The notes beneath the pieces are model-generated. The model was not told where the DNA came from, ran no database searches, and saw nothing but the letters and a program-made list of their open reading frames with translations. A DNA stretch of 32,000 nt, taken from assembly GCF_007431345.1 (NCBI RefSeq), contig NZ_CP041730.1, forward strand, positions 163,651 to 195,650, given 5' to 3'. The DNA is from Chitinimonas arctica (lineage in GTDB: Bacteria > Pseudomonadota > Gammaproteobacteria > Burkholderiales > Chitinimonadaceae). Of the stretch, positions 2,080 to 32,000 are shown one piece after another (within the stretch, counting starts at the first letter, position 1; every line of letters begins with the position of its first letter). The position numbers and the translations under genes were made by a program.

Positions 2080-2512
2080 ACAGATCCATATTCTGTTGGT
2101 GGAAGACAACCCACTGGATGCCGAATTGACGATGTATGGCCTGCGCGGCGGCAATATCTCGAACATGATTACCTGGGTGAAGGACGGCAAGGAGGCGCTG
2201 GACTACATTTTTCGTCGCGGCACCTATAGCGACCGCGAGTTGGCGCCCCCCGGGCTGATCCTGCTGGATCTGAAGATGCCCCATGTGGACGGTACAGAAG
2301 TACTGGCGGCGGTGAAGTCGGACGAAACCACCCGGCGCATCCCGGTCGTGGTGATGACTTCCTCGCGCGAGGAGTGCGACATGGTCAAGAGCTATGACCT
2401 CGGCGCCAACAGCTACGTGGTCAAGCCGGTGGATTTCGATGGCATCAGCGATATCGCGAAACAGGCCGGTTTTTATTGGCTAGTCGTCAACCGTACACCG
2501 CACAGCACCTGA
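2066..2512 (+). CDS. Single-domain response regulator (CheY-like receiver)
   Basis: ATG at 2066 is preceded by AAGGAGG (2053-2059). The protein MEEFEQIHILLVEDNPLDAELT...LILLDLKMPHVDG...SYVVKP carries the receiver DD/D/K signature. It overlaps the kinase stop by 14 nt. The track ORF start at 1949 lies inside the kinase gene and was rejected. Confidence 0.9.
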   Translation: MEEFEQIHILLVEDNPLDAELTMYGLRGGNISNMITWVKDGKEALDYIFRRGTYSDRELAPPGLILLDLKMPHVDGTEVLAAVKSDETTRRIPVVVMTSSREECDMVKSYDLGANSYVVKPVDFDGISDIAKQAGFYWLVVNRTPHST

Positions 2513-2521
2513 TCGAGCGAA

Positions 2522-17283: not shown

Positions 17284-17631
17284 CCTACCCTCCCACATAT
17301 TGGGCCAGGATAACGGCTAGCCTGGCGATTTGGTTTCTCCAGAGAAGCACAGCATCTATATGGTCTTTCAACTCACCAAGCCCACTAAGCGCAATTATGT
17401 ATAGCCTATATGACCTGTTGCCTACAGTGTTTTGTCTCAGATCGACAGGCAAGGGCGCTATTGTATGTGCTGTGGAAATTGGCAACGACAAGGCCCGTGC
17501 CAGCACTTTCCCACCTGCCGGTCCGCATTCGTCTATCGGCGTAAAAACCGCCAGCCTGTACTGCTAAATTTGCACGTGCCATTCACCCTGCATGAAAAAC
17601 CGACAATGACGCTTCGTGCGAGCGTTAACGT

Positions 17632-18693
17632 CTAATCGCGAGCCACTGCTGCACTTTCTTTTGCTATCCGGTCGAGATTTTTCTGCGCGTCAGCGTGCCC
17701 TTGAGCAGCAGATTTTCGGTACAGGTCGAGTGCTTGCCGATCATCCCGAGTCAACCCTAGGCCGTGTTCGTACAGATGACCGAGTTTGTTCTGCGCAAAA
17801 GCATCCCCTTGTGCTGCGGCCTTGCGATACCAGGCAGCGGCTTGGGCATAATCTTGCTGCACCCCACGGCCAGCCTCATACAATGTCGCCATGCTCGCTT
17901 CCGCAGTGGCCAGCCTCTGTTCGGCACTTTTTCGATACCACATCATCGCTTGCGCGTAGTCCTGCGGCACACCATGGCCCTGTTCGAACATATCCCCAAC
18001 ATTGCACTGGGCAGCGGGATGTCCTTGATCCGCAGCCTTGCGATACCAGGCCATTGCTTGTGCATGATCCCGCGGCACATCGGAGCCTTTCATATAGATC
18101 ATGCCGAGATTGAACTGAGCGCGGGAGAAACCCTTCTCGGCGGCCTTTCGAAGCCAGAAAAACGCTTGCGGAAAATCTCGCGACACGCTTTTGCCATCTA
18201 AAAAGAGCACGCCCAACGCGTTCTGAGCAACTGGCAGCCCCTGTTTGGCTGCCCTTCGGTACCAGGCGATAGCCTGTTCATCATCCTGCGGCACGCCGAG
18301 CCCCTGCTGGTACATCCATCCGAGGTTGGTCTGAGCAGTCGCACGCCCCTGCTCAGCGGCTTTGCCGCACCAGCTCAGTGCCTGCTAATTATCTTGCGGC
18401 ACGCCAAGGCCACCAAGGTACAGCGTACAAAGATTGGTCTGCGCATCCGCATTGCCCTGCTGCGCGCTCTTGCGATACCAAGCCAAAGCTTGCAGGTGGT
18501 CCTGCGCAACTTCCTGACCTAGCTGATACATTGCGCCCAGCTTGTTTTGGGCGGCGGCATGGCCGCTTTCCGCCAACGCACGCACCCCATCGAGTGTCGC
18601 CTGCTGAAGGTCCGTTTTATGTCCATTCAATCCCGCCCAGGCCATACCGGACAATCCCACTGCCATGGTAAGCAGCCAAATACGTACTTTCAT
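17632..18693 (-). pseudogene. Sel1-like repeat (SLR) protein interrupted by one in-frame TAG (18385-18387)
   Basis: Track ORFs 18385..18693 and 17632..18315 are in the same frame. Translating across the gap gives ...GGLGVPQDN*QALSWCGKAAEQGRATAQTNLGWMYQQGLGVPQDDEQAIAWYRRAA..., a continuous series of about eight 36-aa Sel1 repeats (consensus AQxxLGxxYxxGxGVxQDxxQAxxWYRKAAxQG). The N-terminal signal peptide is MKVRIWLLTMAVGLSGMAWA. Confidence 0.8.
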
Positions 18694-18727
18694 TTCAATT
18701 CCCTTTGCTTACTGCGCATCAGCGATT

Positions 18728-18849
18728 TTAGCTGGGCCCCACCACCCCCGCCCTGATCTCGAATTCAACCGTCTCCAAACGCTCGCGCAGCACCGTCTGC
18801 TGGTGGCTGAGATGCACCCGGTTCACACGGCCTGTCGCGCCAGCGCATC
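18728..18849 (-). pseudogene. Relic of the 3' end of a pilN-like gene (diverged copy of 19616-19723)
   Basis: The - strand reads DALARQAV, then a 1-nt deletion, then NRVHLSHQQTVLRERLETVEFEIRAGVVGPS*. The intact gene reads DALAGQAVLSRVHLSHQQTVLRERLETVEFEVRAGV.... There is no upstream coding continuation. Confidence 0.6.
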
Positions 18850-18896
18850 AAGGTGGCCCGTCTCGTCGCACCCCAATTTTTGAGTAAATTCAACTT

Positions 18897-19502
18897 TCAG
18901 GGAAGATCTAAGTTGCTCTTAGCATTGTTCCACGATGCTTTTTGTTGGACAAAAAATCCCACATTTAATAGGGCGGTCTTCTCGATAGCTTTCAAATCCT
19001 CTTGCTGCTGAGTAAGCTCTCTTTGCATAAGGGGATGTACTAATATTTTATTATCCAACAGAAGGTCACTGGGGGCCAGCCCCTCTATTTCTTGTATATA
19101 TAAATCCACGGAATCAGTTGCATAGGTCGCAGCTTGTACAATTCTGCCCACATTATTTTCACGTAAATGATCCAAAAGACTGCACACTGAAAAACACGCA
19201 TCTTGTGCCGATGACACATATAGAGAAGCAAAGTCATCTGAACTGGGTGCCGCCAGCTCACAAGCTTGGGTCGCATTTTTTATTTCCTGGACGCTCACCG
19301 ATTCACCGGAAAGAAACTTCCAAACAATGTCCAAGGCCTTTCGCAAGGAAGAAAAATCTCCCCAGTCCGTATCTTGCTGGAAGGCAATATAATTCGGCAC
19401 TAGCCTTTCACAGCAAAAAGCACCAAATGCCAGTTGACGATTGCCATCAAGCTTAGTTAGGCGCGCCTTTAAGGTCGCGCCATCAAATGCAGGCATAACC
19501 AT
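18897..19502 (-). CDS. DUF416 (YjaG-like) family protein
   Basis: 201-aa ORF. The blocks FGAFCCERLVPNYIAF, ALDIVWKFL and APSSDDFASLYVSSAQDAC mirror the conserved blocks I recall from E. coli YjaG (CLCERMYPNY, ILDLIWETL, IPSADDF...AIDAC). The gene is markedly AT-rich; a hand count of 19081-19140 gives 24/60 GC. Confidence 0.7.
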   Translation of the reverse strand: MVMPAFDGATLKARLTKLDGNRQLAFGAFCCERLVPNYIAFQQDTDWGDFSSLRKALDIVWKFLSGESVSVQEIKNATQACELAAPSSDDFASLYVSSAQDACFSVCSLLDHLRENNVGRIVQAATYATDSVDLYIQEIEGLAPSDLLLDNKILVHPLMQRELTQQQEDLKAIEKTALLNVGFFVQQKASWNNAKSNLDLP

Positions 19503-19586: not shown

Positions 19587-20132
19587 TCACACGCCTGATG
19601 AAGGATTCTGGCCTGTCACCCCCGCCCTGACCTCAAATTCGACTGTCTCCAAACGCTCGCGCAGCACTGTCTGCTGGTGGCTGAGATGCACCCGGCTCAA
19701 TACAGCCTGCCCCGCCAGCGCATCCAGATAAGCCTCCAGGGCGCGGCGATCGCGCGCCTCGCCGCGCAGGATCAGTTGGCGGCTGGTCTTGTCGGGTTGG
19801 AATTCGAGTAACTCCACATCGGCTTTGCCTGCCCGTTCGATGGCCAGGAAGACCTCCGGCCACGGGTATTCGCGCTCGGCCTGCAGTGCCGCCCATTGTT
19901 TTTGCGTACGTTGCAATGCCTTGTCGTCCACCGGCTTGGCAGCGCGGCGCTGCTGGACTTGCAGCCTTTCGCTCCGGGCGGCGAGCTGTTCGGTGCGCGC
20001 AGCGGTTTGATAGGCGTCCTGCGCCAGCCAGGCCGCGCCGATCAGCAGCACGGCGACCAGCAGCCACAGCCAGCCGGCATGGCGCAGCGGCGGACGAAGA
20101 TAAGGGCTAAGCGGGTCCATATTCATTGCCAT
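19587..20132 (-). CDS. PilN/GspM-like bitopic assembly protein
   Basis: 181-aa ORF with a single TM (WLWLLVAVLLIGAAWLA), then a coiled-coil, then a ferredoxin-like periplasmic region (VELLEFQPDKTSRQLILRGEARDRRALEAYLDAL). It overlaps the upstream gene stop (ATGGCAATGA). Its position after the GspE and PilM-like genes fits this role. Confidence 0.6.
   Translation of the reverse strand: MAMNMDPLSPYLRPPLRHAGWLWLLVAVLLIGAAWLAQDAYQTAARTEQLAARSERLQVQQRRAAKPVDDKALQRTQKQWAALQAEREYPWPEVFLAIERAGKADVELLEFQPDKTSRQLILRGEARDRRALEAYLDALAGQAVLSRVHLSHQQTVLRERLETVEFEVRAGVTGQNPSSGV
19616..19723 (-). repeat. Copy B of a ~107-nt direct repeat (copy A = 18743-18849)
   Basis: I aligned the two copies by eye. There are long identical runs (e.g. 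GTCTCCAAACGCTCGCGCAGCAC and GTCTGCTGGTGGCTGAGATGCACCCGG), scattered substitutions and one 1-nt indel. Confidence 0.8.
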
Positions 20133-20893
20133 TCGCTGGGGGTAAGGGCTTGCACCACTGCGCCGGGCAGGTTGGCGACGATCTGTTCGGCACGGCTGCT
20201 CGCGTCATCGGTTGCGGCCGACCAGGCGGCGACCTGTTCGATCGCACCGTGCAGGGCAGCCAAACGGCGTAGCAGGCGGGTAGTGGCGGCTTGCGCGTCG
20301 CCGGCTGCGGGTTCCACGTCATAGCCGATCAGGCCGGCGTGGTCGTACAGCAAGGCGGTGCTGCGGCTGGCATCGCCCAGTAGCAGCAGGCGCTTGCCTT
20401 CTCCCGGTGCGCAAGCCGCGCGGTGGTAGATGGCGGCGGACAGTGGCAAGACAGTGCGCAGGCGCAGACCGTGCGCCTGGCACAAGGCCGGCAGTTCGGT
20501 CAGGCAGCCGCGCCGCAACGCATACGCCAGACCCAGCCGACCATGATGACGGAAATCGCTGTGTTGCACCCACTCCCGATCCAGCGGCTGGCCTTGCTGT
20601 TCAAAGCAGGCTTGCGCATAGGCTTCGACCTCGGCCGGCGTCTGTAGCGCCGGCTGCCAGGCGAGCGGCGCCAGGGCCGCCAGGCTGTCCGAGACAGTCA
20701 GCACCAAGCGGCTGCCCGGCCGCCATTGCCCGGTGTGTTCGGTCAACAGCGCGATTAGTTCAGCCAGCAGATCAAGCGGTGCGGGGCTCGGTGCATATTC
20801 GCTCCAGCGCGGCGCGGCGGACCGGCCAAGCTGCAGGCCGCGCCGGCCCGGAAACAGACTGGCGTAGACGGTACTAGGCCACAAAGGTGACAC
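20123..20893 (-). CDS. Putative PilM / GspL-cytoplasmic-domain-like assembly protein (weak call)
   Basis: The frame is continuous with coding-like composition. GTG 20893 (or TTG 20884) overlaps the gspE end. No TM segment is present. Loose PilM/GspL-like blocks are present (RLVLTVSDSLAAL, GLRLRTVLPLSAAIY, KRLLLLGDASRSTALLYDHAGL). The gene sits between GspE and the PilN-like gene. The track start at 21013 lies inside gspE and was rejected. Confidence 0.45.
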   Translation of the reverse strand: MSPLWPSTVYASLFPGRRGLQLGRSAAPRWSEYAPSPAPLDLLAELIALLTEHTGQWRPGSRLVLTVSDSLAALAPLAWQPALQTPAEVEAYAQACFEQQGQPLDREWVQHSDFRHHGRLGLAYALRRGCLTELPALCQAHGLRLRTVLPLSAAIYHRAACAPGEGKRLLLLGDASRSTALLYDHAGLIGYDVEPAAGDAQAATTRLLRRLAALHGAIEQVAAWSAATDDASSRAEQIVANLPGAVVQALTPSEWQ

Positions 20894-22541
20894 GATTGAC
20901 CTCCTGCAATGTGGTCTGGCCGTCGCGCACCCCTTGCAGGGCGACCTCGCGCAACAAGCGGGTGCCTTCGCGGCGGGCCTGCTCCTTGAGGGTGCGCAGC
21001 GAGGCGCGGTCAATGATCATTTCGCGCAGCTCGTCGCTGAGGCACATGACTTCGGCCACTGCCCGGCGGCCTTTATAGCCGCTGCCGCGGCATTGCGGGC
21101 AACCGCGGCCGGCACGGAAGCGGTAGTTCTCCGGATCGGGGATGCCGGAGTCGGCTAATAAGGCGGCATCGAGCTGCTGGTCGGTCACGCAGTGCGGGCA
21201 GTTCTGCCGCACCAGCCGCTGCGCCACCACGCCCGTCAGGGCCGAGACCAGGTGATACGGGTCCACGCCCATATGCATAAAGCGGCCGATAACGTCGAAA
21301 CTGTTGTTGGCATGCACCGAGGTAAACACCAAATGGCCGGTCAGCGCCGACTGCACCGCGATCTGGGCGGTTTCCGCATCGCGGATCTCGCCGACCAGGA
21401 TCTTGTCCGGATCATGCCGCAGGATGGAACGCAGGCCAACGGCAAAGCTGAGGCCCTTCTTTTCGTTGACCGGAATCTGCAGCACGCCGGGCAGCTGGTA
21501 TTCGACCGGATCTTCGATGGTAATGAACTTATCTTCGCCCTGGTTGATCTCGGTCAAGGCCGCATACAGGGTAGTGGTCTTACCGCTGCCGGTCGGACCG
21601 GTGGCCAGCAGCATGCCGTAGGGCGCGGCCGCCAGCCGGCGCAGCACGCGCACGGTATCGGCATCGAATCCCAGCGAATCCAGCGTCAGGCGCTGCACCT
21701 GGTCGATCAGGGCTTGCTTGTCCAAAATCCGCAGCACGGCATCTTCGCCGTGGATGCTGGGCATGATGGAGACGCGGATATCGATATCGCGGCCCTTGGC
21801 GGCAATGCGGAAGCGGCCGTCCTGCGGGATGCGCTTTTCGGCGATATCGAGTTCGGCCAGCACCTTGATACGGGCGATGGCCTGTTCGGCCAGCGCGGTT
21901 TTGTTGACGGTGGCGATGCGGTTCAGCACGCCGTCGATACGGAACTTGATCACCAGGCCTTGCGGGATCGATTCGAGGTGGATATCGCTGGCTTCGCAGC
22001 GCAAGGCATCGAACACGGTCGAGTTGATCAAGCGCACGGCCGGACTGGCCTCGCCCTGGATCGATGCCAGGGTCAGGTCGGCGCTGGCATCGCGCGCCAG
22101 TTCGATGGATTGGTCCAGGCCGACCGCATCGGCCACGGCGCTGAAACCGGCCTCGTGCCGTTCCAGCTCGGCGCGCAGCAGGGCGGGGTCGGCCAGGTAA
22201 AGCGCCGTCAGCGGCAAGGCTTGAGCGGCCAGCCACGGGCCCAGCCGGCTATCCAGCGGCTGGCCGATCGCGGCGCAGAGCCGGCCGGCGGCGTCGTGCC
22301 CCACCAGCAGCACTCTTTCGGCCATGTCGGTGTAGGCCACTTGCGCGAAGTCCGGCTGGAGCGGCCAGCCGGTGGCGCAGTCTAGCGGCGGGTAGGCCAG
22401 CAGGGTGGCGGCCTCGGCCAGCAACGCCTCGCGCGATTGCGGGGAACGCTCGGCCAGCCAGCTCAGCCAGTCGCCGCCGAGGCCGGCGGCTTGGCAGGCC
22501 TGCGTCAGCTCGGCCAGGGTCAGGGGGGCATCAAAGTGCAT
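20874..22541 (-). CDS. gspE: GspE/PilB-family secretion ATPase
   Basis: 555-aa ORF with Walker A (ATGPTGSGKTTT), Asp box and Walker B (KILVGEIRD), His box (TGHLVFTSVHAN), and the tetracysteine CPHC...CPQC motif. Confidence 0.95.
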   Translation of the reverse strand: MHFDAPLTLAELTQACQAAGLGGDWLSWLAERSPQSREALLAEAATLLAYPPLDCATGWPLQPDFAQVAYTDMAERVLLVGHDAAGRLCAAIGQPLDSRLGPWLAAQALPLTALYLADPALLRAELERHEAGFSAVADAVGLDQSIELARDASADLTLASIQGEASPAVRLINSTVFDALRCEASDIHLESIPQGLVIKFRIDGVLNRIATVNKTALAEQAIARIKVLAELDIAEKRIPQDGRFRIAAKGRDIDIRVSIMPSIHGEDAVLRILDKQALIDQVQRLTLDSLGFDADTVRVLRRLAAAPYGMLLATGPTGSGKTTTLYAALTEINQGEDKFITIEDPVEYQLPGVLQIPVNEKKGLSFAVGLRSILRHDPDKILVGEIRDAETAQIAVQSALTGHLVFTSVHANNSFDVIGRFMHMGVDPYHLVSALTGVVAQRLVRQNCPHCVTDQQLDAALLADSGIPDPENYRFRAGRGCPQCRGSGYKGRRAVAEVMCLSDELREMIIDRASLRTLKEQARREGTRLLREVALQGVRDGQTTLQEVNRVTFVA

Positions 22542-23712
22542 TGGCCATCTCGAAAATCGGGGTATACAGCATCAATACAATGGCGCCGATGACCAGGCCG
22601 ATGCCGACCATCAGCACCGGTTCGATCAGCCGGCCAGCCACATCGAGCCAGGCAGCCACTTCCTGGTCGTAGAAATCGGCGATCCGTTCCAGCATCTCGT
22701 CCAGCTGGCCGGACGATTCGCCGGCCAACAGCAAGCGGTCGGCCACTTCGGTACTGAGGCCTTGCTCCGCCATCACCCGCGACAAAGGGTGCCCCTCGCT
22801 GACCGCCCTGCCCGCTTGCTGCAAGCGCGCCTGCATGGCCAAGGGCAAGGCGGCCTCGCTCATCCTCATGGCAGCGAGGACGCTGACGCCGCTGCGCAGC
22901 AGCATCCCCAGGGTGCGGTAAAGGCGGGCCAATTGCAGGGTCCAGACCTTGTCCCCCAGCCAGGGCGTGCGCAACACGCGGCGGAACACGCCGGCGCGGA
23001 CAGCCGGTTGCAGCGCCACGAGCAAGCCGCCCAGGGGCAGCGCCAGGCACAGCCCCCAGGCCAGCCAGGGATACCCGTTGACCAGGCTGCCCCAAGCCTG
23101 CACCAGGCGCGACATATCCGTCTGCCTGGGCACATCCTCGAATACCGCGCTGAAACGCGGCACCACATACAGCAACAAAAAGGTCACCACCAGATAGCCG
23201 ACCCCGACCAGGATCGCCGGATAGACGGCGGCCGCCAGCAGTTGGCCGCGAATGGCATCGACCTGGCGCTGGTAGTGCATAAAGCGCTGGATGGCGGCGC
23301 GCACGCTGCCGGTGGTTTCGCTGGCGCGCAGCATGGCCAGGTAAAGCGCCGGAAAGACCGAGGGCAAGGCCGCCATCGCTTCCGACAGCTGTTTGCCGTG
23401 CCGTAGGCCTTGCAACAGGCTGTCGTAGACGGCCCGGTGCCGCCCGGTCCGGTCGTTGCGGCCAAGGATCTCGATCGCATCGACGATAGGCTGGCCGGCT
23501 TCCAGCAAGGCGTGCAATTGCTGGTTGAACACCAGCAGCTTGAAGGCCGCGGCGCCCTTGAGACGCGGCAGGCCGTGCCGGACCGGTCGCAGCGTCAGCA
23601 ATCGACCGCCGCTTGCTGCCAGCACGCGACGCGCTTCTGCTTCATCGGCGGCTTCCAGCTCAACCTGCCTCACTTGGGCGTCGGCTTGTAGCACCTTGGC
23701 GCGGTAGCGCAT
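22531..23712 (-). CDS. gspF: GspF/PilC-family platform protein
   Basis: ~393 aa with two T2SS-F repeats and hydrophobic segments (AAAVYPAILVGVGYLVVTFLLLYVVP; LIEPVLMVGIGLVIGAIVLMLYTPIF). ATG at 23712 is preferred; TTG at 23715 is the alternative. The 3' end overlaps the gspE start. Confidence 0.9.
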   Translation of the reverse strand: MRYRAKVLQADAQVRQVELEAADEAEARRVLAASGGRLLTLRPVRHGLPRLKGAAAFKLLVFNQQLHALLEAGQPIVDAIEILGRNDRTGRHRAVYDSLLQGLRHGKQLSEAMAALPSVFPALYLAMLRASETTGSVRAAIQRFMHYQRQVDAIRGQLLAAAVYPAILVGVGYLVVTFLLLYVVPRFSAVFEDVPRQTDMSRLVQAWGSLVNGYPWLAWGLCLALPLGGLLVALQPAVRAGVFRRVLRTPWLGDKVWTLQLARLYRTLGMLLRSGVSVLAAMRMSEAALPLAMQARLQQAGRAVSEGHPLSRVMAEQGLSTEVADRLLLAGESSGQLDEMLERIADFYDQEVAAWLDVAGRLIEPVLMVGIGLVIGAIVLMLYTPIFEMANAL

Positions 23713-23936
23713 CAATTAATCTCGCAGCTTGCCACAAAGGCATTGAATGCGTACGTGTAGTCCGCCGAGGAAAGCAGCAGATGTTCTGGGATAGTCATGC
23801 TGCATTTTATGGAATAGATCATTGCCGCACTAAGGACACTTGCCCCTATCGAGCCGAGCCGAGATGTTCCGTGACAAGTCATCCTCGCAGAGTGCAGCCG
23901 CAATCCTATTGGGGTAAATTCGCTTCATTCCCCAAG

Positions 23937-24488
23937 CTATTCGCCCAGAGGCGAACAGTCCTCCGGTGGATCCGCCCATTCGCCCAACGGATCTTTGGGC
24001 GGAAGCGGTTGCGCGCGGGCAGCACAGATGTACCCGCCTTTGGGGAGGGGAATCAGTTCCAGAAATTCGTTTTCGCATACCGTCGAAATGCTCACCCCCC
24101 ACTCGGCCTTACCCGGCTCCGGCATTTCGTCCATGCAACCTTTCGAAGTTGCTGTAATAGTTTCGATTACGATACACCCTTGTAGGCCTGTGACCTTATC
24201 TGCGGGGGTCACGCGCGTAGCGTAAGTGCTGAGAAAGGCTGCTCCAGTCATGTTCAATGCATTGCACTCTCCAACGCGCGGCGTACTTTCCGTTCTGCTG
24301 GGAATGGACAAACCCCCACAGGCTGCCCCCACGGTACTTCCCCGCGAGGTATAGACGCCGCTGACGACCGTGTCGATTCTAGCCTCATACACGGGTGTTT
24401 CAAGAGAGGCCGATTGACTAACAATCGATGAAGTTACCAGCGCGAATATGCTAAAGCGGCGCCAGCCGCTTTTAAAATAGTTACGCAT
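23937..24488 (-). CDS. Hypothetical secreted protein (signal peptide, several Cys)
   Basis: ATG 24488 lies 2 nt after the upstream TGA (24491-24493). The N-terminus MRNYFKSGWRRFSIFALVTSSIVSQSAS is signal-peptide-like. ~183 aa; no recognisable family. Confidence 0.55.
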   Translation of the reverse strand: MRNYFKSGWRRFSIFALVTSSIVSQSASLETPVYEARIDTVVSGVYTSRGSTVGAACGGLSIPSRTESTPRVGECNALNMTGAAFLSTYATRVTPADKVTGLQGCIVIETITATSKGCMDEMPEPGKAEWGVSISTVCENEFLELIPLPKGGYICAARAQPLPPKDPLGEWADPPEDCSPLGE

Positions 24489-24490
24489 TT

Positions 24491-24892
24491 TCAAGGCCTT
24501 ACTTCCTGAGCTTGTTTTGTTTTACTAATAAGCAGATCTATTCTTGCACGCAAATATTTTCCGAGAAAATAAGCCGTCACTCCGACGAGCAGCATGGCCG
24601 GTGTCACACCATGTGTAATCATTTCACTCAGCGAGGAAAGATGGCTAAAGAAATAGTTCACATTCATCATCATTAAAACGAAAATGTTCCATACCACTTC
24701 CATCAAGAATAAGACAATGACGGCCTCGGGCCACTTCACCCGTCCAGAAACTCCCATCAAGCTCATCGGAATGGCCACAGCCAAAGTCATGCTAAGCGTG
24801 CCATGCTCCAAGCAGGCAAGGACCATCGTCTCGCAGATCTTATAGCTAAGTAGCAGCACAAAAAGACGAAACACCAGCTTAATGATTTTCAT
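24491..24892 (-). CDS. Small polytopic membrane protein (~4 TM), candidate Rhs-tip immunity protein
   Basis: ATG 24892 is preceded by AAAGGA. The 133-aa protein MKIIKLVFRLFVLLLSYKI...LSMTLAVAIPMSLMGV...AVIVLFLMEVVWNIFVLMMM...AMLLVGVTAYFLG is very AT-rich. It begins 36 nt after the Rhs stop. The longer track start (24949) overlaps the Rhs gene. Confidence 0.6.
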   Translation of the reverse strand: MKIIKLVFRLFVLLLSYKICETMVLACLEHGTLSMTLAVAIPMSLMGVSGRVKWPEAVIVLFLMEVVWNIFVLMMMNVNYFFSHLSSLSEMITHGVTPAMLLVGVTAYFLGKYLRARIDLLISKTKQAQEVRP

Positions 24893-24927
24893 GCAATTTC
24901 CTTTAGAAATCCCCAAGTACTGCCGAT

Positions 24928-27900
24928 CTAAAAACTTTTCGTCATGCACTTGTTGTAGTTAGTCTCGCACGTCGTCATGGCATCCGTATCCACGGAACCA
25001 TCTGGTGCGTTTGCCTTTCCATAACAGGCTGTTCTATCCTGATGACAGCAGAGTGTCGGAGTACGCGCGCAGGCACCCCTTACATTAACCTTGCATTGCT
25101 GTTGAAGCTTCCCATTTAGCCATGCCCAGCCACAATAATCGCGTTTGCATTCTTGATAGCGCGGGGCATCATCACCCGGGTCATAAGGTTTTTTCGGCTC
25201 CCTCGGTAAATCAAAATGCGCACCCGGCTCCATGGATTTACATCCAATACCACCACGCGTGCATTGAATTTCCAGACCAAACGGATCGACAAACAACAGC
25301 GGGTTTGCACCGACATAAAGGTAAGTGTTGCTCCCTCCAGCCAAGCCAATCGGATCGGACTGGATATAGCGTCCAGAAGCCGGATCATAGTCCCGGAAGT
25401 AGTTATAGTGCAGACCGCTTTCGACGTCATAGTACTGCCCGTCGAAGCGGAGGTTGTAGACAAACTTACTGCCAGTCTTCGCGGGGTCTTGGTTGGGTTG
25501 AACCGTGCCGAATCCGTCACTATCCCAACGCCACACGACCTTGTTGGCGGTATCTGTTACCACCCGTGGCGAGCCAAGCTCATCCGGCTGCACATAAAAG
25601 ACGGTTACACCTGCGCCATTCGGTCGCAGCGTTGCAACCGGCAGGTTCTCCAGCCAAACCGTTTCTTGTACCAACTTGCCCGCCGCATCATATTCGCCCA
25701 ATAGATGACCTTGCAGATCGTAGACAAACAGACCGCCGGTTTTGCTAAACCGCTGACCTAGGCCGTTGTATTGATAGTTGGTCGTAACGCTGCCCTTCTT
25801 GACGGACACCATGCGTCCGCGGCTGTCGTAAGTGAAGGTGCGTGTCGCATCCTTCACGATGCTGCCGGCAGCATCGACGCTGATCGGAGAGACGACGCCG
25901 GTAGCGACGTTGGTGATGGCATTCAGCTTGTTGCCGCTGTAGTCATAGGTGTTACCGCTGCTACCGCTCTCGTCCGGCGCCCAGCTCAGTCGATTGCTAT
26001 TGCCATCGTACGCATAAGTGAAGTTACGCCCCGCATTGCTTTTTTCCCAGACCAAGCGGTCCAATTCATCGTACGCGAATGTTTGGTTGCGCTTGCCATC
26101 GAGCACATCAACAATGCCGGTTAGATTACCGACGGCATCGCGTTCCAGTTTGCGCGTCAAGGCGCCCTCGGAGCTGATATTGACCAATTGTCCAGCCAAA
26201 TCGAACAAACGCTGATGGCGCTTTCCATTGGCCCAAGACCAAGCCATCGGTATTTTACTCAGGGGCAGCCAACTGAGATCACTGATGATGGCAGTGCCAT
26301 TCACGCTCACACCATTTGGCTGGCTTTGATTCGAAGCATAATTGAAGCCAATGACTTGACCGGAGGGGGTAGTGAGACTGTTTAGCCTACCCGCCGCATC
26401 CCGATTATAACGGGTAGTTAGATTAATACTCCCTACCGTTTGCGTCAGCAAATTGATTTGCCCAAGCCCATCGTAGCCAAAACCAACCGTGGCGCCACCA
26501 CCGACAATGCTGCTTAGCGCACCAATACGCGCCGAGTCGTAAGTATAATTTATGAGGGGACCACCAGCGTAACTGATGCTCGCCACACGTCCGATCACAT
26601 CGTAGGTGTAAGTGCTGACTTTACCACGGGCATCGGTCCGAGTTTTGATCAAACCGTTTGGTAGGTAAGTATATTGCTCAATACCCGTATCGGGACTTTG
26701 TCTTTTTAGCGTCTGGCCCAGGCCATTGACCGTATAATTTGTGCTCTGCCCATCTGGCGTAATGACGCTGGCTATCTGGCCAAGAACGTTATAGCCAGAG
26801 AGGATGGAATTCCCATCGGGACGTGTCGAACTAATTAGTGAATTCAATCCATCATAAGCGTATGTATTGCTTCGACCAAGCGCATCGACCTGATCAATGA
26901 GATTACCGTTGGCATCATAGCTGAAGCGGGTGACCTTCCCCAGTCCATTGCTGATTGAGTCGAGCTTTCCCGTCAATGGATCGTAAGTGAAGATTTGTTT
27001 CGTGACGACGCCCAAAGCATTAGTTCGACTTTCGGTCAATGGCCGACCTGCGTTATCCAAGGTGTAGGCGATACGCCCTCCGGTGGCATCTTGGATAGTA
27101 GTTAGTCGATCTGCGCTGTCATAAGTAAAGCTAGCGCTTCCGCCATTTGGCCGCGAAACCGAAGCCAATTGTCCATGTAACGTGTATGTGTAAGTCGTGC
27201 GGCTACCATTGGTGGTCAGCTCAATGAGACGACCAAGGTCGTCGTAAACATAGCTCGTCACCTCGCCGGTGGGGGCCGTGATACGGAGAGGACGGCCATG
27301 CGCATCGTTCTCGTTAATCGTCCAGGTATGATCCAGGGCATTAGCAACGCTAATCAACGCACCGCTGTTGTCATAGCTGTAACGCGTCTTGCCGGTGCGG
27401 GGGTCGGTGACGCTCGTCACCCGACCGGCCGCATCGTGGGTATAGGTCCACGTCTGGCTTTGTCCACCCGCAGTCATCGTTTTCGTCAGCGAATTGCCTT
27501 GACCGTCATAGGTATACGTCACTTTGTTGAGTGGCGTGTTCAGTTCCAGCAATTTGCTCTGCGTACTGTCGGTCCGTTCGGTGCTCACCAAACCGTTTGG
27601 ATAGGTCGTGGTAACCAGCGTGCCGGTACTGTCATATTTGCGGCTGGTGGTATTGCCATTGAAATCCGCGTAAGTATTCGGCCGGCCGATATTGTCGTAC
27701 CCGATGGTCCGCGCGGATCCATCGCTTCGCGCAATGGTTGTCGGTTGTAGCGCGCCCTTTTTTGCGAAGGTGAAGCTGCGCGCAACCCCGCGTGCATCGG
27801 TCAAGACACGGCTGCCGTCACCGCTATCCACCAACGTGGTCGTACCAAGTCCATCGGGGCCGCTGACCGTACTGACCAACTTAGCCGGGGTATAGCTAAT

Positions 27901-28842
27901 CTTTTCAATCAGCGCCCCAGCTGCGTCGTCAACCTGAGTTAGCAGCTGCGGTGCACCTTCATGATGATACTGATATCGCTCGCCGCTCCCCGCCGGACCG
28001 TAAACGGCGGCCAAGTTGCCTATCGTATCGTAGCTATAATTGAGTACATAGCCGCCAGGTCCAGCGATCTGGCGCAGCGCCCCATTGGCTTGGTAATAAA
28101 ACGAAAGTACCCGCCCGCCCATCGACGTGACCGTAGCGAGATTGCCGGCCGGATCATAATCGAGGTTGGCGCTCCAGCCGTTCGCCTGGGTAAAGGCGCT
28201 CAACTTATACACGTTGCCGGGTCCCGTCGGCTTGAATGTCTGCACCCTGCCATCGCGCCACGTCACTGTATAAGCCGCACAATTGCTGACCACTTGATTA
28301 ATCGCCGTCAAGTTTTCAGGATTGGGGGCTGGGGTAGAATCGCTGTTGGTCTCGGTCGGCGCGATGCACTCGACCGACGCCTTGCGATCACTCATGACTC
28401 TCCACGGGCCGGTGGCAGTATCGCTGCTAAGCATCAATTGCTCGCCCTGCGCCCCAAAGATCACGGCTCGGCCCGGCCAATTGAAGGTCCGCGTTTCGTA
28501 ATAAGTGGTCGGCTGGCCGTCCGACTCCCGAATCTTGTAGAACGGCCCATAGGTATGCGTAAAACGCGTATATGGTCGGATCAGGAACAACTGCTCGGTG
28601 AGGAATGGCAAAGTCCAGCCGGGATTCCCCAATGCACCAGCGGGTACCTGGAAGGCGGCGTGTGCATTTGCACTACTATAAGTTCTAACCAAGGAAAGCT
28701 CGGGTTCGGCTACATTCTCGTAATCGACGACGGAATGACTGTAGCTCGCGTTGGCGGGATGAATGGCCGCAAAAGTGGAGACTGGCAACGCGGCAACGGC
28801 AAATACTTTCGCCACAGCGAAAGCAGGAAAATTCAACTTCAC
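24928..28842 (-). CDS. Rhs / YD-repeat toxin with N-terminal Sec signal peptide and a variable C-terminal tip
   Basis: GTG 28842 follows AGGAAG. The signal peptide is MKLNFPAFAVAKVFAVAALPVSTFAAIHPANA. There are dozens of YD-type repeats (e.g. YTYDxxGRxxS, YxYDxxGNL). The Rhs core end is FDGQYYDVESGLHYNYFRDYDPASGRYIQSDPIGLAGGSNTYLYVGANPLLFVDPFGL, followed by a 114-aa tip. No PAAR or VgrG-like region was seen. Confidence 0.9.
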   Translation of the reverse strand: MKLNFPAFAVAKVFAVAALPVSTFAAIHPANASYSHSVVDYENVAEPELSLVRTYSSANAHAAFQVPAGALGNPGWTLPFLTEQLFLIRPYTRFTHTYGPFYKIRESDGQPTTYYETRTFNWPGRAVIFGAQGEQLMLSSDTATGPWRVMSDRKASVECIAPTETNSDSTPAPNPENLTAINQVVSNCAAYTVTWRDGRVQTFKPTGPGNVYKLSAFTQANGWSANLDYDPAGNLATVTSMGGRVLSFYYQANGALRQIAGPGGYVLNYSYDTIGNLAAVYGPAGSGERYQYHHEGAPQLLTQVDDAAGALIEKISYTPAKLVSTVSGPDGLGTTTLVDSGDGSRVLTDARGVARSFTFAKKGALQPTTIARSDGSARTIGYDNIGRPNTYADFNGNTTSRKYDSTGTLVTTTYPNGLVSTERTDSTQSKLLELNTPLNKVTYTYDGQGNSLTKTMTAGGQSQTWTYTHDAAGRVTSVTDPRTGKTRYSYDNSGALISVANALDHTWTINENDAHGRPLRITAPTGEVTSYVYDDLGRLIELTTNGSRTTYTYTLHGQLASVSRPNGGSASFTYDSADRLTTIQDATGGRIAYTLDNAGRPLTESRTNALGVVTKQIFTYDPLTGKLDSISNGLGKVTRFSYDANGNLIDQVDALGRSNTYAYDGLNSLISSTRPDGNSILSGYNVLGQIASVITPDGQSTNYTVNGLGQTLKRQSPDTGIEQYTYLPNGLIKTRTDARGKVSTYTYDVIGRVASISYAGGPLINYTYDSARIGALSSIVGGGATVGFGYDGLGQINLLTQTVGSINLTTRYNRDAAGRLNSLTTPSGQVIGFNYASNQSQPNGVSVNGTAIISDLSWLPLSKIPMAWSWANGKRHQRLFDLAGQLVNISSEGALTRKLERDAVGNLTGIVDVLDGKRNQTFAYDELDRLVWEKSNAGRNFTYAYDGNSNRLSWAPDESGSSGNTYDYSGNKLNAITNVATGVVSPISVDAAGSIVKDATRTFTYDSRGRMVSVKKGSVTTNYQYNGLGQRFSKTGGLFVYDLQGHLLGEYDAAGKLVQETVWLENLPVATLRPNGAGVTVFYVQPDELGSPRVVTDTANKVVWRWDSDGFGTVQPNQDPAKTGSKFVYNLRFDGQYYDVESGLHYNYFRDYDPASGRYIQSDPIGLAGGSNTYLYVGANPLLFVDPFGLEIQCTRGGIGCKSMEPGAHFDLPREPKKPYDPGDDAPRYQECKRDYCGWAWLNGKLQQQCKVNVRGACARTPTLCCHQDRTACYGKANAPDGSVDTDAMTTCETNYNKCMTKSF

Positions 28843-29376
28843 TATTTCTTCCTTGGAATATTTCGAACACGCCAGTACCGCATTACAAAGATTGCAATGT
28901 ATTAGCTAGTAAAGACATCTAACGCTTTACCGAAAAACAACCCCATCCGCTCATTGCCCATAAACGAGCGCAACAAGGTACCTGGCTGGGCACACGCACC
29001 AACCAGAGAGCAATCGAAAAAGGGAACAGCCGACTCGCCTACCCAGAGCGGCCGGTACTTTACCATAAAACAAAAAATATGCAAGTATTTCAATACCTTG
29101 CAAGCGAGCAACAGGCATTGAAATCTCTTGAAAAGTCGCCTACACAAGGCCTCTGCCGGGTTTGGGGTCCAGTAAAAAGCGAGGCCTGCAACACGCTTGA
29201 TCCAGGAGGGGGAGGGATGAATGTCCTATGCGACGCGCTCAACTTGGGGGTTAGGAATTTCCCTGGCCCATGCCGCTGGGCCCCTCCCTCGCTGACACAT
29301 GCCCACAAGTACCAGCAGGACAAATAAGCGGATTTTTAAAATTGCAGAGATAAATAAGCCACTTTGAATTGTCTTG

Positions 29377-29421
29377 AAAAAACATCCCCTGCGTTGACAA
29401 GGCTAGCGCTCGCCTCAACGC
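29377..29421 (-). terminator. Possible terminator after the gspG-like gene
   Basis: On the - strand, GCGTTGA pairs with TCAACGC (29391-29397 / 29415-29421 on +). A TTTTTT run (29377-29382 on +) follows 8 nt later. The geometry is not canonical. Confidence 0.3.
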
Positions 29422-29454
29422 ATATAGACGAACCCAGACGTCCCAACGCTTTAT

Positions 29455-29886
29455 TCACTTAGCCTCGACGCTGTCCCAATTGGTCACATCGGCATCGTCG
29501 CCGCTACCGCCAGGCTTACCATCCTTGCCATAAGCGACAATATCGGCATCGCGCCCTTGGTCGCCGGGCGACTTGTAGACATAGGCATGACCCCAGGGGT
29601 CGGCCGGTACGCGCTTCTTCAGGTACGGACCGCGCCAGTTGCCTTCATTGGCTGGTGCCGCCACCAGCGCAGCCAGGCCTTGCGCGGTGGTCGGGTAGCT
29701 GCCGACATCGACCCGGTATTGGTCGAGCGCCTTGTCGAAACCGTCGATTTGCGCACGGGCGACCTGGGTTTGCGATTTGCCGATCTGCGAGAAGTACTTG
29801 GGACCGACGAAACCGGCCAGCAGGCCGATGATCAGCAGGACGACCAGCAGTTCAAGTAAGGTAAAACCAGCGTGTTTGGCTCTCAT
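29455..29886 (-). CDS. gspG: Major pseudopilin GspG-like
   Basis: ATG 29886 forms an ATGA overlap with the upstream gene. The prepilin leader and cleavage motif are MRAKHAG|FTLLELLVVLLIIGLLA with Glu+5. GspG-like blocks are QIDGFDKALDQYRVDVGSYPT, GNWRGPYL and DPWGHAYVYKSPG. The track start at 29952 was rejected. Confidence 0.9.
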   Translation of the reverse strand: MRAKHAGFTLLELLVVLLIIGLLAGFVGPKYFSQIGKSQTQVARAQIDGFDKALDQYRVDVGSYPTTAQGLAALVAAPANEGNWRGPYLKKRVPADPWGHAYVYKSPGDQGRDADIVAYGKDGKPGGSGDDADVTNWDSVEAK

Positions 29887-30377
29887 TTTCGGCTTTTTTC
29901 CGGTTCGGTCGGGGCATCCGGCCCCGTATCGGGTTGATAGATAAACTGCCAATCTCGGTAGTGCTTGGCGCCCTTGAAACTTGCCAGCTCAGTTGGAAAG
30001 CCATCGATCTTCTGCGGCGCCTGCATGGAGAGGGAGTACACCCCCATGATGCCGCCACTGGGGGCCGGTACCAGGCCCCACTCCTGCGTGGCGCGGATCG
30101 GGTCACGGTACAAGCGGCGCAATGGCCGCTGCGGCCGAAGTGGGCGCTGGTCCAACAACAATACGTCCAGCGTGGGCGGATAGCGCACGCTGCCGCTGCC
30201 ATTGCGGTAATAGGCACGGATAGCAGCTTGGTAGGCCTGGCCGACATAGAGCAGCTCGGCTTCACGTTCACGCAGCTCGGCCGTACGGCTATTCTCCAGC
30301 GCGCGCGTGGTCAGCACCGCCAGGATGGCGACCAGGAACAACGCAACCAAGTAGCTGAAGCCCTGCTGGCGCCGCAT
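29883..30377 (-). CDS. Minor pseudopilin-like protein lacking Glu+5
   Basis: ATG 30377 forms a TGATG overlap. MRRQQG|FSYLVALFLVAILAVL has the prepilin-type G|F motif, but Val sits at +5. In classical T2SS that is the hallmark of the GspK-type tip subunit, although this protein is only ~164 aa. Confidence 0.65.
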   Translation of the reverse strand: MRRQQGFSYLVALFLVAILAVLTTRALENSRTAELREREAELLYVGQAYQAAIRAYYRNGSGSVRYPPTLDVLLLDQRPLRPQRPLRRLYRDPIRATQEWGLVPAPSGGIMGVYSLSMQAPQKIDGFPTELASFKGAKHYRDWQFIYQPDTGPDAPTEPEKSRK

Positions 30378-30748
30378 CACCAGTCCTTGAACCAGCTTTT
30401 GTCACGTGCTTGGCCGGGCGCCGCACTGCGAACGTCGGCGATAGCGCCGGTACCGCTCTCGGTCGGTGCAATCGGCAGCCAGCTCTCCTTGCTCTGCGTC
30501 AGCGGGTCGATCGGGATGCGGCGCAGGTATTTATGGTCGACCAAGTCTTGCAGCGTTTCAGGGTATTTGCCCTTGTCGGCGTAAAACTTATCGATGGCAT
30601 CGCGCAGCAGGTACAGATCCTCGCGCAGCACATCCTCCTTGGCCCGGTCCAGATTGCCGAAATAGCGTGGCGCGGCCAGCGACAGCAGCGTGGCGATGAT
30701 GGCCAAGGTGACCAGCAATTCGATCAGGGTAAAGCCCTTGGTGCGCAT
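30377..30748 (-). CDS. GspG-like pseudopilin paralogue
   Basis: ATG 30748 lies 2 nt after the upstream TAA. MRTKG|FTLIELLVTLAIIATLLSLAAP has Glu+5. A GspG-like LRDAIDKFYADKGKYPETL block is present. Confidence 0.75.
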   Translation of the reverse strand: MRTKGFTLIELLVTLAIIATLLSLAAPRYFGNLDRAKEDVLREDLYLLRDAIDKFYADKGKYPETLQDLVDHKYLRRIPIDPLTQSKESWLPIAPTESGTGAIADVRSAAPGQARDKSWFKDW

Positions 30749-30750
30749 GC

Positions 30751-31251
30751 TTACCACTCCCTGTAGGCCACGCCGTTCAGGCCGGTCTGCGTGGAGAGCG
30801 AGTAGACGTCGAACACATCGTCGCCGGCCAACGGCTGGTCCGGCGGCGAGTCGAATCGGCGCATGCCCCAGGTCTGTTCGGCGGGCGTACTGGCGGTCGG
30901 ATAGAAGGGATCGCGCGGCAGGCGGCGCAGGAAATACAGCCGCGCGCCGCCCGGCGCCTTGGCATTCGGCACCCCGGCTGCCAAGGCGACGAGCGTGGGT
31001 GGATAGCCATTCTGGCTGCCGGAGGCATCTACCGGGACAATGCGCCCATCAGCCGTGGCGGCTTTATAGGCATCGATTGCCTGACGGATATCCCGCAGCG
31101 CGCGGCGCAGCTCGTGTTCCTTGTGCCGCTTGAGCGTGGTCTGCGCTAAAGGCATGGCCATGGCCGCCAGCGTGGCGATAATGGCCAGCGTGGCCAGCAG
31201 CTCGATAAAGCTGAAACCGCCCGCACGGCTGGAAGAAAGTCGGCGCGGCAT
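30751..31251 (-). CDS. GspG-like pseudopilin paralogue
   Basis: ATG 31251 lies 2 nt after the upstream TGA. MPRRLSSSRAGG|FSFIELLATLAIIATLAAMA has Glu+5. An LRDIRQAIDAYKAA block is present. Confidence 0.7.
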   Translation of the reverse strand: MPRRLSSSRAGGFSFIELLATLAIIATLAAMAMPLAQTTLKRHKEHELRRALRDIRQAIDAYKAATADGRIVPVDASGSQNGYPPTLVALAAGVPNAKAPGGARLYFLRRLPRDPFYPTASTPAEQTWGMRRFDSPPDQPLAGDDVFDVYSLSTQTGLNGVAYREW

Positions 31252-31253
31252 GA

Positions 31254-32000
<747 letters not shown>

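Follow-up and report, generated by a model that had tools for sequence, protein, structure and literature searches.

We analysed a window of 32,000 nucleotides of the Chitinimonas arctica genome (contig NZ_CP041730.1, positions 163,651 to 195,650 of the forward strand), and all coordinates below are those of this window unless a metagenomic locus is named. On the minus strand, the open reading frame (ORF) 24928..28842 encodes an Rhs protein of 1304 residues, identical to WP_143855948.1 / QDQ25023.1 of C. arctica, which is annotated as an 'RHS repeat protein'. Its last 114 residues form a tip rich in cysteine (Cys), and two small ORFs follow directly downstream. A first-pass annotation of the sequence had described the tip with its 11 Cys residues exactly as we found it, and had named the two ORFs, both of which were confirmed at the coordinates given. 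The features of the locus are as follows.

28747..28842, minus strand: predicted Sec signal peptide, approximately residues 1-32 of the Rhs protein, by inspection
25273..28842, minus strand: Rhs body, residues 1-1190, YD-repeat shell and Rhs-associated core, by Pfam and NCBIfam
25273..25302, minus strand: PLLFVDPFGL, residues 1181-1190, aspartyl autoproteolysis motif, read from the sequence
24931..25272, minus strand: tip of 114 residues with 11 Cys, residues 1191-1304, putative cleavable cargo, from the ORF translation
24491..24892, minus strand: ORF of 133 residues (imm) with 3-4 hydrophobic segments, candidate inner-membrane immunity protein, by hydropathy
23937..24488, minus strand: orf3, 183 residues with a signal-peptide-like N-terminus and 7 Cys, from the ORF list

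The Rhs body was recognized by the Pfam profile PF05593 (RHS_repeat; E 4e-66, 18 stretches) and by TIGR01643 of NCBIfam (E 1.6e-54). The Rhs-associated core (TIGR03696, Rhs_assc_core; E 2.6e-21) spans residues 1119-1190, which places the core end at residue 1190. The core closes with PLLFVDPFGL, a motif of the PxxxxDPxGL class, and an earlier DPIGL is present 23 residues before it. From their sequence, the two motifs appear to be the two-aspartate self-cleavage site of Rhs shells, and by analogy with the autocleavage described in the Rhs literature (PMC13018210, PMC8636562), the protein is predicted to cut itself between L1190 and E1191. The entire body of 1190 residues holds only two Cys, at positions 159 and 188.

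Translation of the Rhs gene starts at a GTG codon, with the Shine-Dalgarno sequence AAGGAAG 5 nt upstream. By inspection, the N-terminus reads MKLNFPAFAVAKVFAVAALPVSTFAAIHPANA/SY and displays n-, h- and c-regions with AxA-type sites. The candidates for cleavage are TFA/A and ANA/S, and the hydropathy over 12 residues reaches a maximum of 2.26. Searches against Pfam and NCBIfam did not detect PAAR, prePAAR, VgrG-interacting, TcdB or TcB-type domains in the protein, and no gene of a type VI secretion system (T6SS) was found within the 32 kb. Taking into account the signal peptide at the N-terminus and the absence of both PAAR/VgrG-type domains and T6SS genes, we rejected a T6SS-delivered Rhs effector. 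FN-plug, NHL and teneurin-specific domains were not detected with Pfam. The N-terminal 219 residues returned no homologue in a word-indexed search, and residues 1-176 are common to no member of the metagenomic clade of related Rhs proteins described below.

The cysteine-rich tip and its membrane-protein partner

The Cys residues of the tip occupy tip positions 4, 11, 42, 47, 60, 68, 75, 76, 83, 102 and 109, with spacings of x6, x30, x4, x12, x7, x6, x0, x6, x18 and x6, residues 75/76 being the CC pair. This corresponds to a Cys content of 9.6%. With the background of 0.85% in the 20 other ORFs of the window, the probability of finding at least 11 Cys in 114 residues is 4.7e-9. The tip is hydrophilic (15-residue hydropathy maximum, 0.49) and its charge is near neutral. 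A colicin-type pore former was rejected because the tip is polar with a charge near neutral, lacks a hydrophobic helical hairpin and matches no colicin or pore-former profile. No CxxC or CxxH zinc knuckles are present in the tip, and a zinc-ribbon or zinc-knuckle domain was rejected for want of such paired ligands. The tip contains two His residues, neither of which is conserved.

The first-pass annotation had been unable to assign the tip to a toxin family, and our searches led to the same result. In Pfam, NCBIfam, PADLOC and PHROGs, no match to the tip was obtained up to E = 10, nor was there one for its only homologue (P0002, see below) in Pfam; nuclease, deaminase and ADP-ribosyltransferase (ART) profiles did not match the tip. 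Likewise without a match were sequence searches of the PDB with phmmer and with a two-sequence profile, scans in which the tip profile was back-translated into patterns and compared with metagenome and genome contigs, and tblastn searches of plasmids with the tip and with orf3. A word-indexed search of 5.8 billion proteins with the tip and its profile was also negative, a weak negative given that the parent protein was missed as well. Structure prediction followed by a Foldseek search, which had been proposed as a check, gave AlphaFold2 models with predicted local distance difference test (pLDDT) scores of 44.7 (single sequence) and 50.8 (two-sequence alignment), and the best Foldseek match in the PDB had a meaningless E of 5. 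At low confidence, the models contain helices at tip residues 54-70, 72-87 and 96-113, and none before residue 37. As the models are poor, they do not establish the fold of the tip.

An exhaustive phmmer search over 1.84 billion cluster representatives returned two proteins, the parent Rhs protein and P0002, the sole relative of the tip (E 1.9e-8, 41% identity). P0002 is an orphan Rhs C-terminal fragment of 213 residues on a 2.8-kb metagenomic contig (L001). It begins at the ...DHLGSPRVVTD region and is located 3' of another toxin-end/immunity pair. The two tips are collinear up to the stop codon, and all 11 Cys of the window tip are aligned with Cys residues in P0002, which has a twelfth. Identity is 23/40 in the first 40 residues and approximately 30% in the remainder, and the tip can be divided accordingly.

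25144..25272, minus strand: tip residues 1-43, the best-conserved segment (EIQCTxGxGCKSME...YDPGDxAxRY), predicted to be non-helical, from the alignment and AlphaFold2
24931..25143, minus strand: tip residues 44-114, predicted helical, disulfide-stapled part with a Cys frame resembling that of secreted phospholipase A2 (sPLA2), from AlphaFold2 and a regular expression

Because P0002 aligns with it as far as the stop codon and has retained every one of the 11 Cys, the tip represents a genuine conserved domain family with two known members, and not the decayed remnant whose existence the first-pass annotation had allowed for. The possibility that the tip is no toxin but a decaying or structural C-terminal extension would fit a family with only two known members, one of which, as an orphan cassette, may not be expressed. 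We consider it highly improbable, as both ORFs and the cleavage motif are intact, all 11 Cys have been kept with an overall identity of 41%, and the downstream genes are translationally coupled. On both sides of the cassette of P0002 and its membrane ORF, contig L001 carries the same element of roughly 90 nt (1033-1135 and 2190-2290), in which the 3' terminus of a resolvase gene is combined with a hairpin, and an intact resolvase gene lies at 2363-2746 (minus strand). These repeats suggest a site-specific insertion or duplication of the cassette.

The imm gene starts 35 nt past the stop codon of the tip, with a ribosome-binding site (AAAGGAAA) 5 nt upstream, and the loops predicted in its product are all short. 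In L001, a membrane ORF of 126 residues overlaps the stop codon of P0002 (ATGA). The pairing of the tip with a small polytopic membrane ORF is conserved in both known loci, and therefore looks like a toxin/immunity cassette. End-to-end global alignment of the two membrane proteins gave z = 3.3 against shuffled sequences. The gene orf3 begins 2 nt past the imm stop codon and is translationally coupled to it. It had no match in Pfam, NCBIfam, PADLOC, PHROGs, plasmids or the related loci. Its product could be an accessory factor, as are the extra ORFs needed for the activity of the bacteriocin Bcn-A, or a second immunity protein.

The first-pass annotation had expected the tip to act either in an oxidising compartment or against a eukaryotic target. 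Weapons against eukaryotes are typically sPLA2s or secreted mini-proteins rich in disulfides, and the host genus is chitinolytic, so that the tip might be directed against fungi or amoebae that a soil bacterium degrading chitin would encounter; the membrane ORF would then not be an immunity gene. We find this second part of the claim improbable because the candidate immunity gene travels with the tip. The two occur together in two unrelated loci, and one of these is an orphan cassette 3' of another toxin/immunity pair, a hallmark of interbacterial polymorphic toxins. In addition, anti-eukaryotic effectors are usually not accompanied by immunity genes (PMC12419801).

Tips of related Rhs proteins and an odd number of cysteines

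Metagenomes were scanned with the C-terminal 376 residues of the core, and 80 loci (L082-L161) with cores 35-59% identical were obtained. The 5' end is present in 54 of them, and many of these proteins start with signal peptides. Cutting at the aligned end of the core yielded 77 complete tips, which fell into 58 sequence clusters. None was related to the window tip, and a hidden Markov model (HMM) of the two tip-family members did not find a relative among them either. On the other side of the cut, the PxxxxD(P)xGL motif class was retained in all 77 cores. The YD repeats, the Rhs core and PLLFVDPFGL, together with the displacement of tips (77 cores with 58 unrelated tip clusters after the same motif), thus identify the window tip as a genuine Rhs cargo.

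The locus shares with the Rhs/YD polymorphic toxin modules (Zhang et al. 2012, PMC3482391) the YD shell, the Rhs-associated core, the PxxxxDPxGL motif and a short variable C-terminal cargo, as well as a small gene directly 3' and the recurrence of the tip in an orphan cassette at another place. It differs from them in that the N-terminus is a Sec signal peptide rather than PAAR, VgrG-linked or TcB-type, the cargo has a single detectable relative, and the candidate immunity protein is a polytopic membrane protein. Within the present sample, the proportion of Cys was at least 5% in 35/77 tips and at least 7% in 23/77, with a maximum of 13%. The window tip lies in the upper tail of this distribution and is not unique, and the supposition of the first-pass annotation that Rhs tips have few Cys residues does not hold in this signal-peptide clade. 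Koskiniemi 2013 is reportedly among the sources on Rhs/YD-repeat toxin-immunity modules.

We then compared the Cys content of the tips with the ORFs that follow them, using the 54 tip clusters, out of 58, that have a called downstream ORF. Cys-rich tips were followed by an ORF with at least two hydrophobic segments in 8 clusters and not in 5, as against 5 and 36 for Cys-poor tips (Fisher p = 9e-4). The low-Cys tips were those with soluble ORFs downstream. The largest Cys-rich family, with 11 tips (L086, L100, L102, L104, L111, L115, L116, L118, L136, L144 and L152), is sPLA2-like, with CCxxHDxCY and 9-13 Cys, and matches the Pfam profiles PLA2G12 (E 7.7e-11), Phospholip_A2_3 (E 1.2e-5) and Phospholip_A2_1 (E 1.8e-4). 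Most of these tips have an ORF of 87-130 residues with 3-4 hydrophobic segments directly 3'. Known immunity proteins of phospholipase effectors are periplasmic lipoproteins, and the membrane ORFs would therefore represent a different kind of immunity protein. A further tip (L083, 3771-4154 of that locus) matches serum amyloid A (SAA; PF00277, E 1.6e-34) and is of the SAA/lipocone type. For prokaryotic SAA 'lipocone' toxin tips, an attack on lipid head groups outside the cytoplasm has been predicted, with immunity proteins that are membrane-spanning or lipoproteins (PMC12419801). The comparative picture of the clade would be one in which the Cys-rich cargo of Sec-type Rhs proteins acts on the envelope and is countered in the membrane.

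These results bear on the possibility that the tip acts in the cytoplasm, its Cys residues binding zinc or iron-sulfur clusters, after the cargo has crossed the inner membrane of the target as Rhs and contact-dependent inhibition (CDI) tips do. Most characterised Rhs tips do act in the cytoplasm, and signal-peptide Rhs proteins (labelled 'T2SS', for type II secretion system) with nuclease tips have been listed (PMC3482391). However, the window tip has neither CxxC/CxxH knuckles nor a conserved His, it matches no nuclease, deaminase or ART profile, its candidate immunity protein is a polytopic membrane protein and not a soluble binder, and soluble downstream ORFs go with the low-Cys tips of the clade. 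We therefore judge a cytoplasmic site of action unlikely.

The number of Cys residues displayed a second regularity. It was odd (1, 3, 5, 7, 9, 11 or 13) in 76/77 clade tips and 57/58 clusters (binomial p 4e-16). As controls, these tips had odd W, H, M, Y, F, Q and N counts in approximately 50% of cases, and the Cys count of the downstream ORFs was odd in 31/69. The window tip, with 11 Cys, conforms to the rule, and the orphan P0002, with 12, breaks it. In a small independent sample of Rhs tips from plasmids and viral contigs, proteins with a signal-peptide-like or unclear 5' end had 1, 5, 3, 1, 5, 1, 3, 11, 1, 5 and 1 Cys, with a single case of 4. The parity was mixed (4, 2, 4, 1, 1 and 3) in Rhs proteins without a signal peptide, which came from Burkholderia, Paraburkholderia and Ralstonia (T6SS-linked) and from Streptomyces (type VII secretion system). 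The obvious idea is that the odd Cys provides a free thiol for tethering or for thiol-disulfide exchange during delivery. In the bacterial teneurin-like toxins (BiTLP), a cargo Cys is disulfide-linked to the plug in a Sec-type YD shell, which is a precedent for an 'extra' cargo Cys (PMC13018210). BiTLP resembles the protein studied here in that a shell encloses a cleaved cargo of ~15 kDa or less, with an adjacent immunity gene. In contrast, the FN-plug, NHL and teneurin-specific domains are not detected here, and the body has two Cys only. Since the body is entirely free of Cys in several of the clade's short Rhs proteins, the odd Cys cannot always pair with the shell, and we rejected this pairing as a general answer.

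As a separate observation in the clade, four tips (L091, L131, L160 and L124) combine an HExxH metallopeptidase motif with just one Cys, which is separated from the cleavage site by some 30 residues, an arrangement reminiscent of cysteine-switch latency.

Resemblance to secreted phospholipase A2

The first-pass annotation had seen no catalytic motif in the tip by eye. This is correct as far as the His-Asp dyad is concerned, but tip residues 46-110 do contain a Ca2+-loop-like YCGWAWLNG, a CC...CY and a C-x6-C, two of which are listed here with their positions.

25111..25137, minus strand: YCGWAWLNG, tip residues 46-54, Ca2+-loop-like (compare WCGxNWSGG of the clade PLA2-like tips), by motif comparison
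25021..25050, minus strand: CCHQDRTACY, tip residues 75-84, at the position of the sPLA2 CCxxHDxCY helix with His-Asp not in register, by motif comparison

When aligned with an HMM of the PLA2-like clade tips, the window tip gave a collinear, statistically insignificant match. The corresponding elements are YCGWAWLNG, where four clade PLA2-like tips have WCGxNWSGG; the CC 28 residues further on (27-28 in the L116 type); C-Y; and C-x6-C (102-109), which lines up with CDxxFxxC in helix 3 of the PLA2-like tips. The Cys frame, comprising the loop Cys, CC, a Cys in helix 2 and C-x6-C in helix 3, is present, the CC-to-C spacing being 7 and not 6. In AlphaFold2 models, a short hairpin between helices 72-87 and 96-113 falls at the place matching this frame. 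A regular expression for the frame matched 10/11 PLA2-like tips, 0/66 other tips, both members of the tip family and 1.1% of shuffled sequences. Six-frame ORFs amounting to 1.84 M residues yielded 6 matches to the loop motif, four of them in PLA2-like tips and one in the window tip; 13/20000 shuffles of the tip matched this motif, and 0/20000 the combined full pattern. With the null2/composition correction switched off, the window tip and P0002 ranked first and second among 68 non-family tips against the PLA2-like HMM, with 12.5 and 11.7 bits versus 5-6 bits for other tips with 11 Cys. In sPLA2, these six cysteines staple the loop and two long antiparallel helices. By analogy, the disulfides C47-C75, C76-C109 and C83-C102 are predicted in the tip, and we consider it likely that the tip is disulfide-bonded.

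Secreted PLA2 and the Tox-PLA2 tips (PF00068, PF06951, PF09056; PMC3482391) thus resemble the window tip in size, high Cys content, the CC doublet, a predicted pair of antiparallel helices each with Cys at i and i+7, and an aromatic-C-G-x-x-W-x-x-G loop ~28 residues ahead of CC. The clade PLA2-like tips share with it the membrane ORFs on their 3' side. Among the differences, CCxxHDxC is replaced by CCHQDRTAC in the window and CCEEDFKSC in P0002 (CCEEDFKSCM where the window tip has CCHQDRTACY), and the expression CC..HD.C matches 10/11 clade PLA2-like tips and neither tip-family member. One more residue lies between CC and the next Cys, HMM and HH matches are not significant, the loop motif is missing in P0002, which has SSCKKSDFL at this position, and the tip has an additional conserved N-terminal segment of 43 residues. 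A canonical PLA2 enzyme was rejected, as the dyad is absent. We have not filed the tip as a PLA2, because the patterns were defined post hoc, hhalign gave a probability of 0.6%, His-Asp is missing, and the glycine of the loop and the acidic helix-3 residue are absent from P0002. A PLA2-derived scaffold without the canonical active site is nonetheless our leading structural hypothesis, a tentative one drawn from these motifs.

Beside it has to be set the possibility that the toxin acts on the envelope but is not descended from PLA2 and has its own fold. Here, a small disulfide-rich ligand would bind an inner-membrane protein or a lipid carrier from the periplasm, in the manner of class II microcins or lipid II-binding peptides, and the membrane ORF would shield the target. 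The tip has no significant profile or fold match to anything, its best-conserved 43 N-terminal residues lie outside the PLA2-like frame, the residues common to both members are not PLA2 active-site residues, and the short loops predicted in the membrane protein fit an action within or at the membrane. However, the collinear Cys frame and the Ca-loop-like motif are shared, among the 77 tips, only with the PLA2-like ones, and a cargo of 114 residues exceeds typical receptor-binding microcins. We regard a fold of its own as rather unlikely.

A T2SS-like operon, and the proposed export and site of action

The rhs, imm and orf3 genes lie within an operon for a T2SS-like system, and the surrounding features are as follows.

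23716..29454, minus strand: island of 5.7 kb (rhs, membrane ORF, orf3 and flanking intergenic DNA) between gspG and gspF, by comparison of operons
29455..32000, minus strand: upstream half of the operon, with the C-terminal end of secretin::cohesin, three pseudopilins and GspG, by operon comparison
19587..23715, minus strand: downstream half of the operon, with GspF, GspE, PilM-like and PilN-like genes, by operon comparison

In the window, the gene order is secretin::cohesin, three pseudopilins, GspG, the rhs-imm-orf3 set, GspF, GspE, PilM-like and PilN-like, and in related operons o190, o193, secretin::cohesin, three pseudopilins, GspG, GspF, GspE, PilM and PilN. The ORF at 31254-32000 (minus strand, cut by the window end), with a cohesin domain, is the C-terminal end of a secretin fused to cohesin. 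An orthologue of 791 residues contains TPR, STN, Secretin_N, Secretin and Cohesin domains, and a cohesin domain on a secretin is unusual. gspF directly follows gspG in 17/18 orthologous operons (Chitinimonas, Duganella, Massilia, Undibacterium and related bacteria), and homologues of rhs, imm and orf3 occur at this position in none of the 18; for these reasons, region 23716-29454 is a C. arctica-specific island. Its GC content is 0.445-0.558, versus 0.60-0.66 in gspG/gspF. No direct or inverted repeats were found flanking the island, and a scan for promoters and terminators did not rise above chance. The AT-rich spacer of 610 bp ahead of rhs may contain its own promoter. At the island edge, about 50 nt past the gspG stop codon, there is a terminator-like hairpin with a T-run (29387-29402, minus strand).

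We found that 10/18 related operons are flanked, on the same strand, by giant ORFs with RHS repeats and a TcdB mid/N domain (L004, 23-4342; L005, L011 and L016, from ~14.2-15.5 kb on; L006, L008, L012, L015, L017 and L049), located immediately 5' of the secretin or shortly 3' of PilN. Three downstream giant ORFs were inspected and have signal-peptide-like N-termini, and the one inspected in L004 ends in a PxxxxDPxGF site and tip of its own. This arrangement suggests that the operon may encode a secretion system dedicated to Rhs/Tc-type cargo, in which case the position of rhs within it may not be an accident. The full-text literature searched contained no description of a T2SS-like operon with such cargo. 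Export of the Rhs protein or its cargo by this system is a possibility to which we give slightly less than even weight.

A precedent is Bcn-A, an Rhs-family bacteriocin of the Gram-negative Xanthomonas perforans. Culture supernatants contain its killing activity, which disappears when xpsD (T2SS) is mutated (PMC7259588). Several small ORFs lie downstream of Bcn-A, including an immunity gene and a signal-peptide protein, an arrangement similar to that described here. Bcn-A uses the housekeeping Xps system, whereas the gene in C. arctica lies inside a separate T2SS-like operon with secretin::cohesin. For action in the periplasm that requires disulfide formation, a conceptual parallel is found in antibacterial T6SS effectors of Serratia, which are reported to act in the target periplasm and to depend on DsbA (PMC5792426). 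They are T6SS-delivered, unrelated in sequence and not Rhs cargo. The closest functional relatives are Bcn-A, the PLA2-like and lipocone tips of signal-peptide Rhs proteins, and the Sec-type teneurin-like shells.

Taken as a whole, we favour, with about even confidence, the reading in which an Rhs polymorphic toxin is exported by Sec and the tip is its cleavable cargo, disulfide-bonded, acting on the envelope and possibly built on a degenerate PLA2 scaffold. The part of it that concerns site of action, an envelope-acting tip with immunity in the membrane, is held more firmly, as probable. An oxidising compartment, the first part of the earlier claim, is favoured by indirect evidence, because there are a signal peptide, no PAAR/VgrG-type domain, no zinc knuckles, a hydrophilic tip of near-neutral charge, a coupled membrane ORF and the link between Cys content and membrane ORFs in the clade. 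According to this proposal, the signal peptide would carry the Rhs protein to the periplasm via Sec, where the YD shell would fold and cut itself after DPFGL. The cargo would fold oxidatively into a small, polar, disulfide-cross-linked protein with a short N-terminal loop region and a helix bundle stapled by cysteines. It would be released from the producer, most plausibly through the pseudopilus/secretin system of the host operon, and would strike the envelope of a competitor at or in the inner membrane, which it would approach from the periplasm. The producer would be shielded by the polytopic membrane protein of 133 residues encoded directly 3'. As to the biochemical activity, our guess is that a diverged sPLA2-type scaffold without His-Asp could cause non-canonical or non-catalytic lipid damage or binding.

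Several points weigh against this reading. Many signal-peptide Rhs proteins carry nuclease tips (PMC3482391), and the signal peptide alone thus leaves the site of action unfixed. As eleven is an odd number, at least one Cys of the tip is not part of an intradomain disulfide. The two candidate immunity proteins are only marginally similar (z = 3.3), BLASTP between them was not significant, and phmmer with the membrane ORFs returned nothing among the clade downstream ORFs. The structure models of the tip are poor, and Foldseek against the PDB was empty. Concerning PLA2, the Cys-frame expression was composed after the sequence had been seen; with the default composition correction, the two tips are not outstanding against the PLA2-like HMM; E values of 0.05-0.13 for the two sequences and the hhalign probability of 0.6% are not significant; His-Asp is in register in neither member; and in P0002 the loop has no CG and the helix-3 Cys is not followed by the acidic residue. 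Concerning export, T2SS genes are absent within 4 kb in all 80 metagenomic relatives, and the position in the operon, found in C. arctica only, could be a chance insertion. Among the alternatives, we rank an unrelated fold acting on a membrane target first, followed by a cytoplasmic metal-binding toxin, an anti-eukaryotic toxin and a dead tip.

A bolder combination joins a remodelled or non-catalytic PLA2-scaffold membrane toxin, a hitherto undescribed T2SS-like exporter of secretin::cohesin and pseudopilins dedicated to signal-peptide Rhs/Tc toxins, and the extra Cys as a general redox handle. The extra Cys would then be needed for the delivery of Sec-type Rhs toxins, and thiol-disulfide exchange could tether the cargo in the shell or allow its capture by Dsb proteins in the target periplasm. 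That all of these elements hold together is unlikely in our estimation.

Nearly all experiments on Rhs toxins have dealt with T6SS-delivered, cytoplasm-acting cargo. The locus offers a clean entry to a poorly studied branch, Sec-exported Rhs proteins with small disulfide-rich cargo and neutralisation by a membrane protein, and the cargo family, its membrane partner and the position inside a secretion operon are new. If the favoured reading is true, the locus would provide an envelope-targeting toxin/immunity pair without relatives, a test case for killing by a PLA2 scaffold without the catalytic dyad, a candidate export system dedicated to Rhs toxins, and a simple odd-Cys rule that hints at redox chemistry during delivery. 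Should it prove wrong, what is left is one more unannotated Rhs tip.

A second stretch of low GC content (0.50-0.57) lies just 3' of the operon at 15979-19502. It encodes a trypsin-like protease, Sel1-repeat and DUF416 proteins, none of whose genes is present in the related loci, and is probably a further acquired segment.

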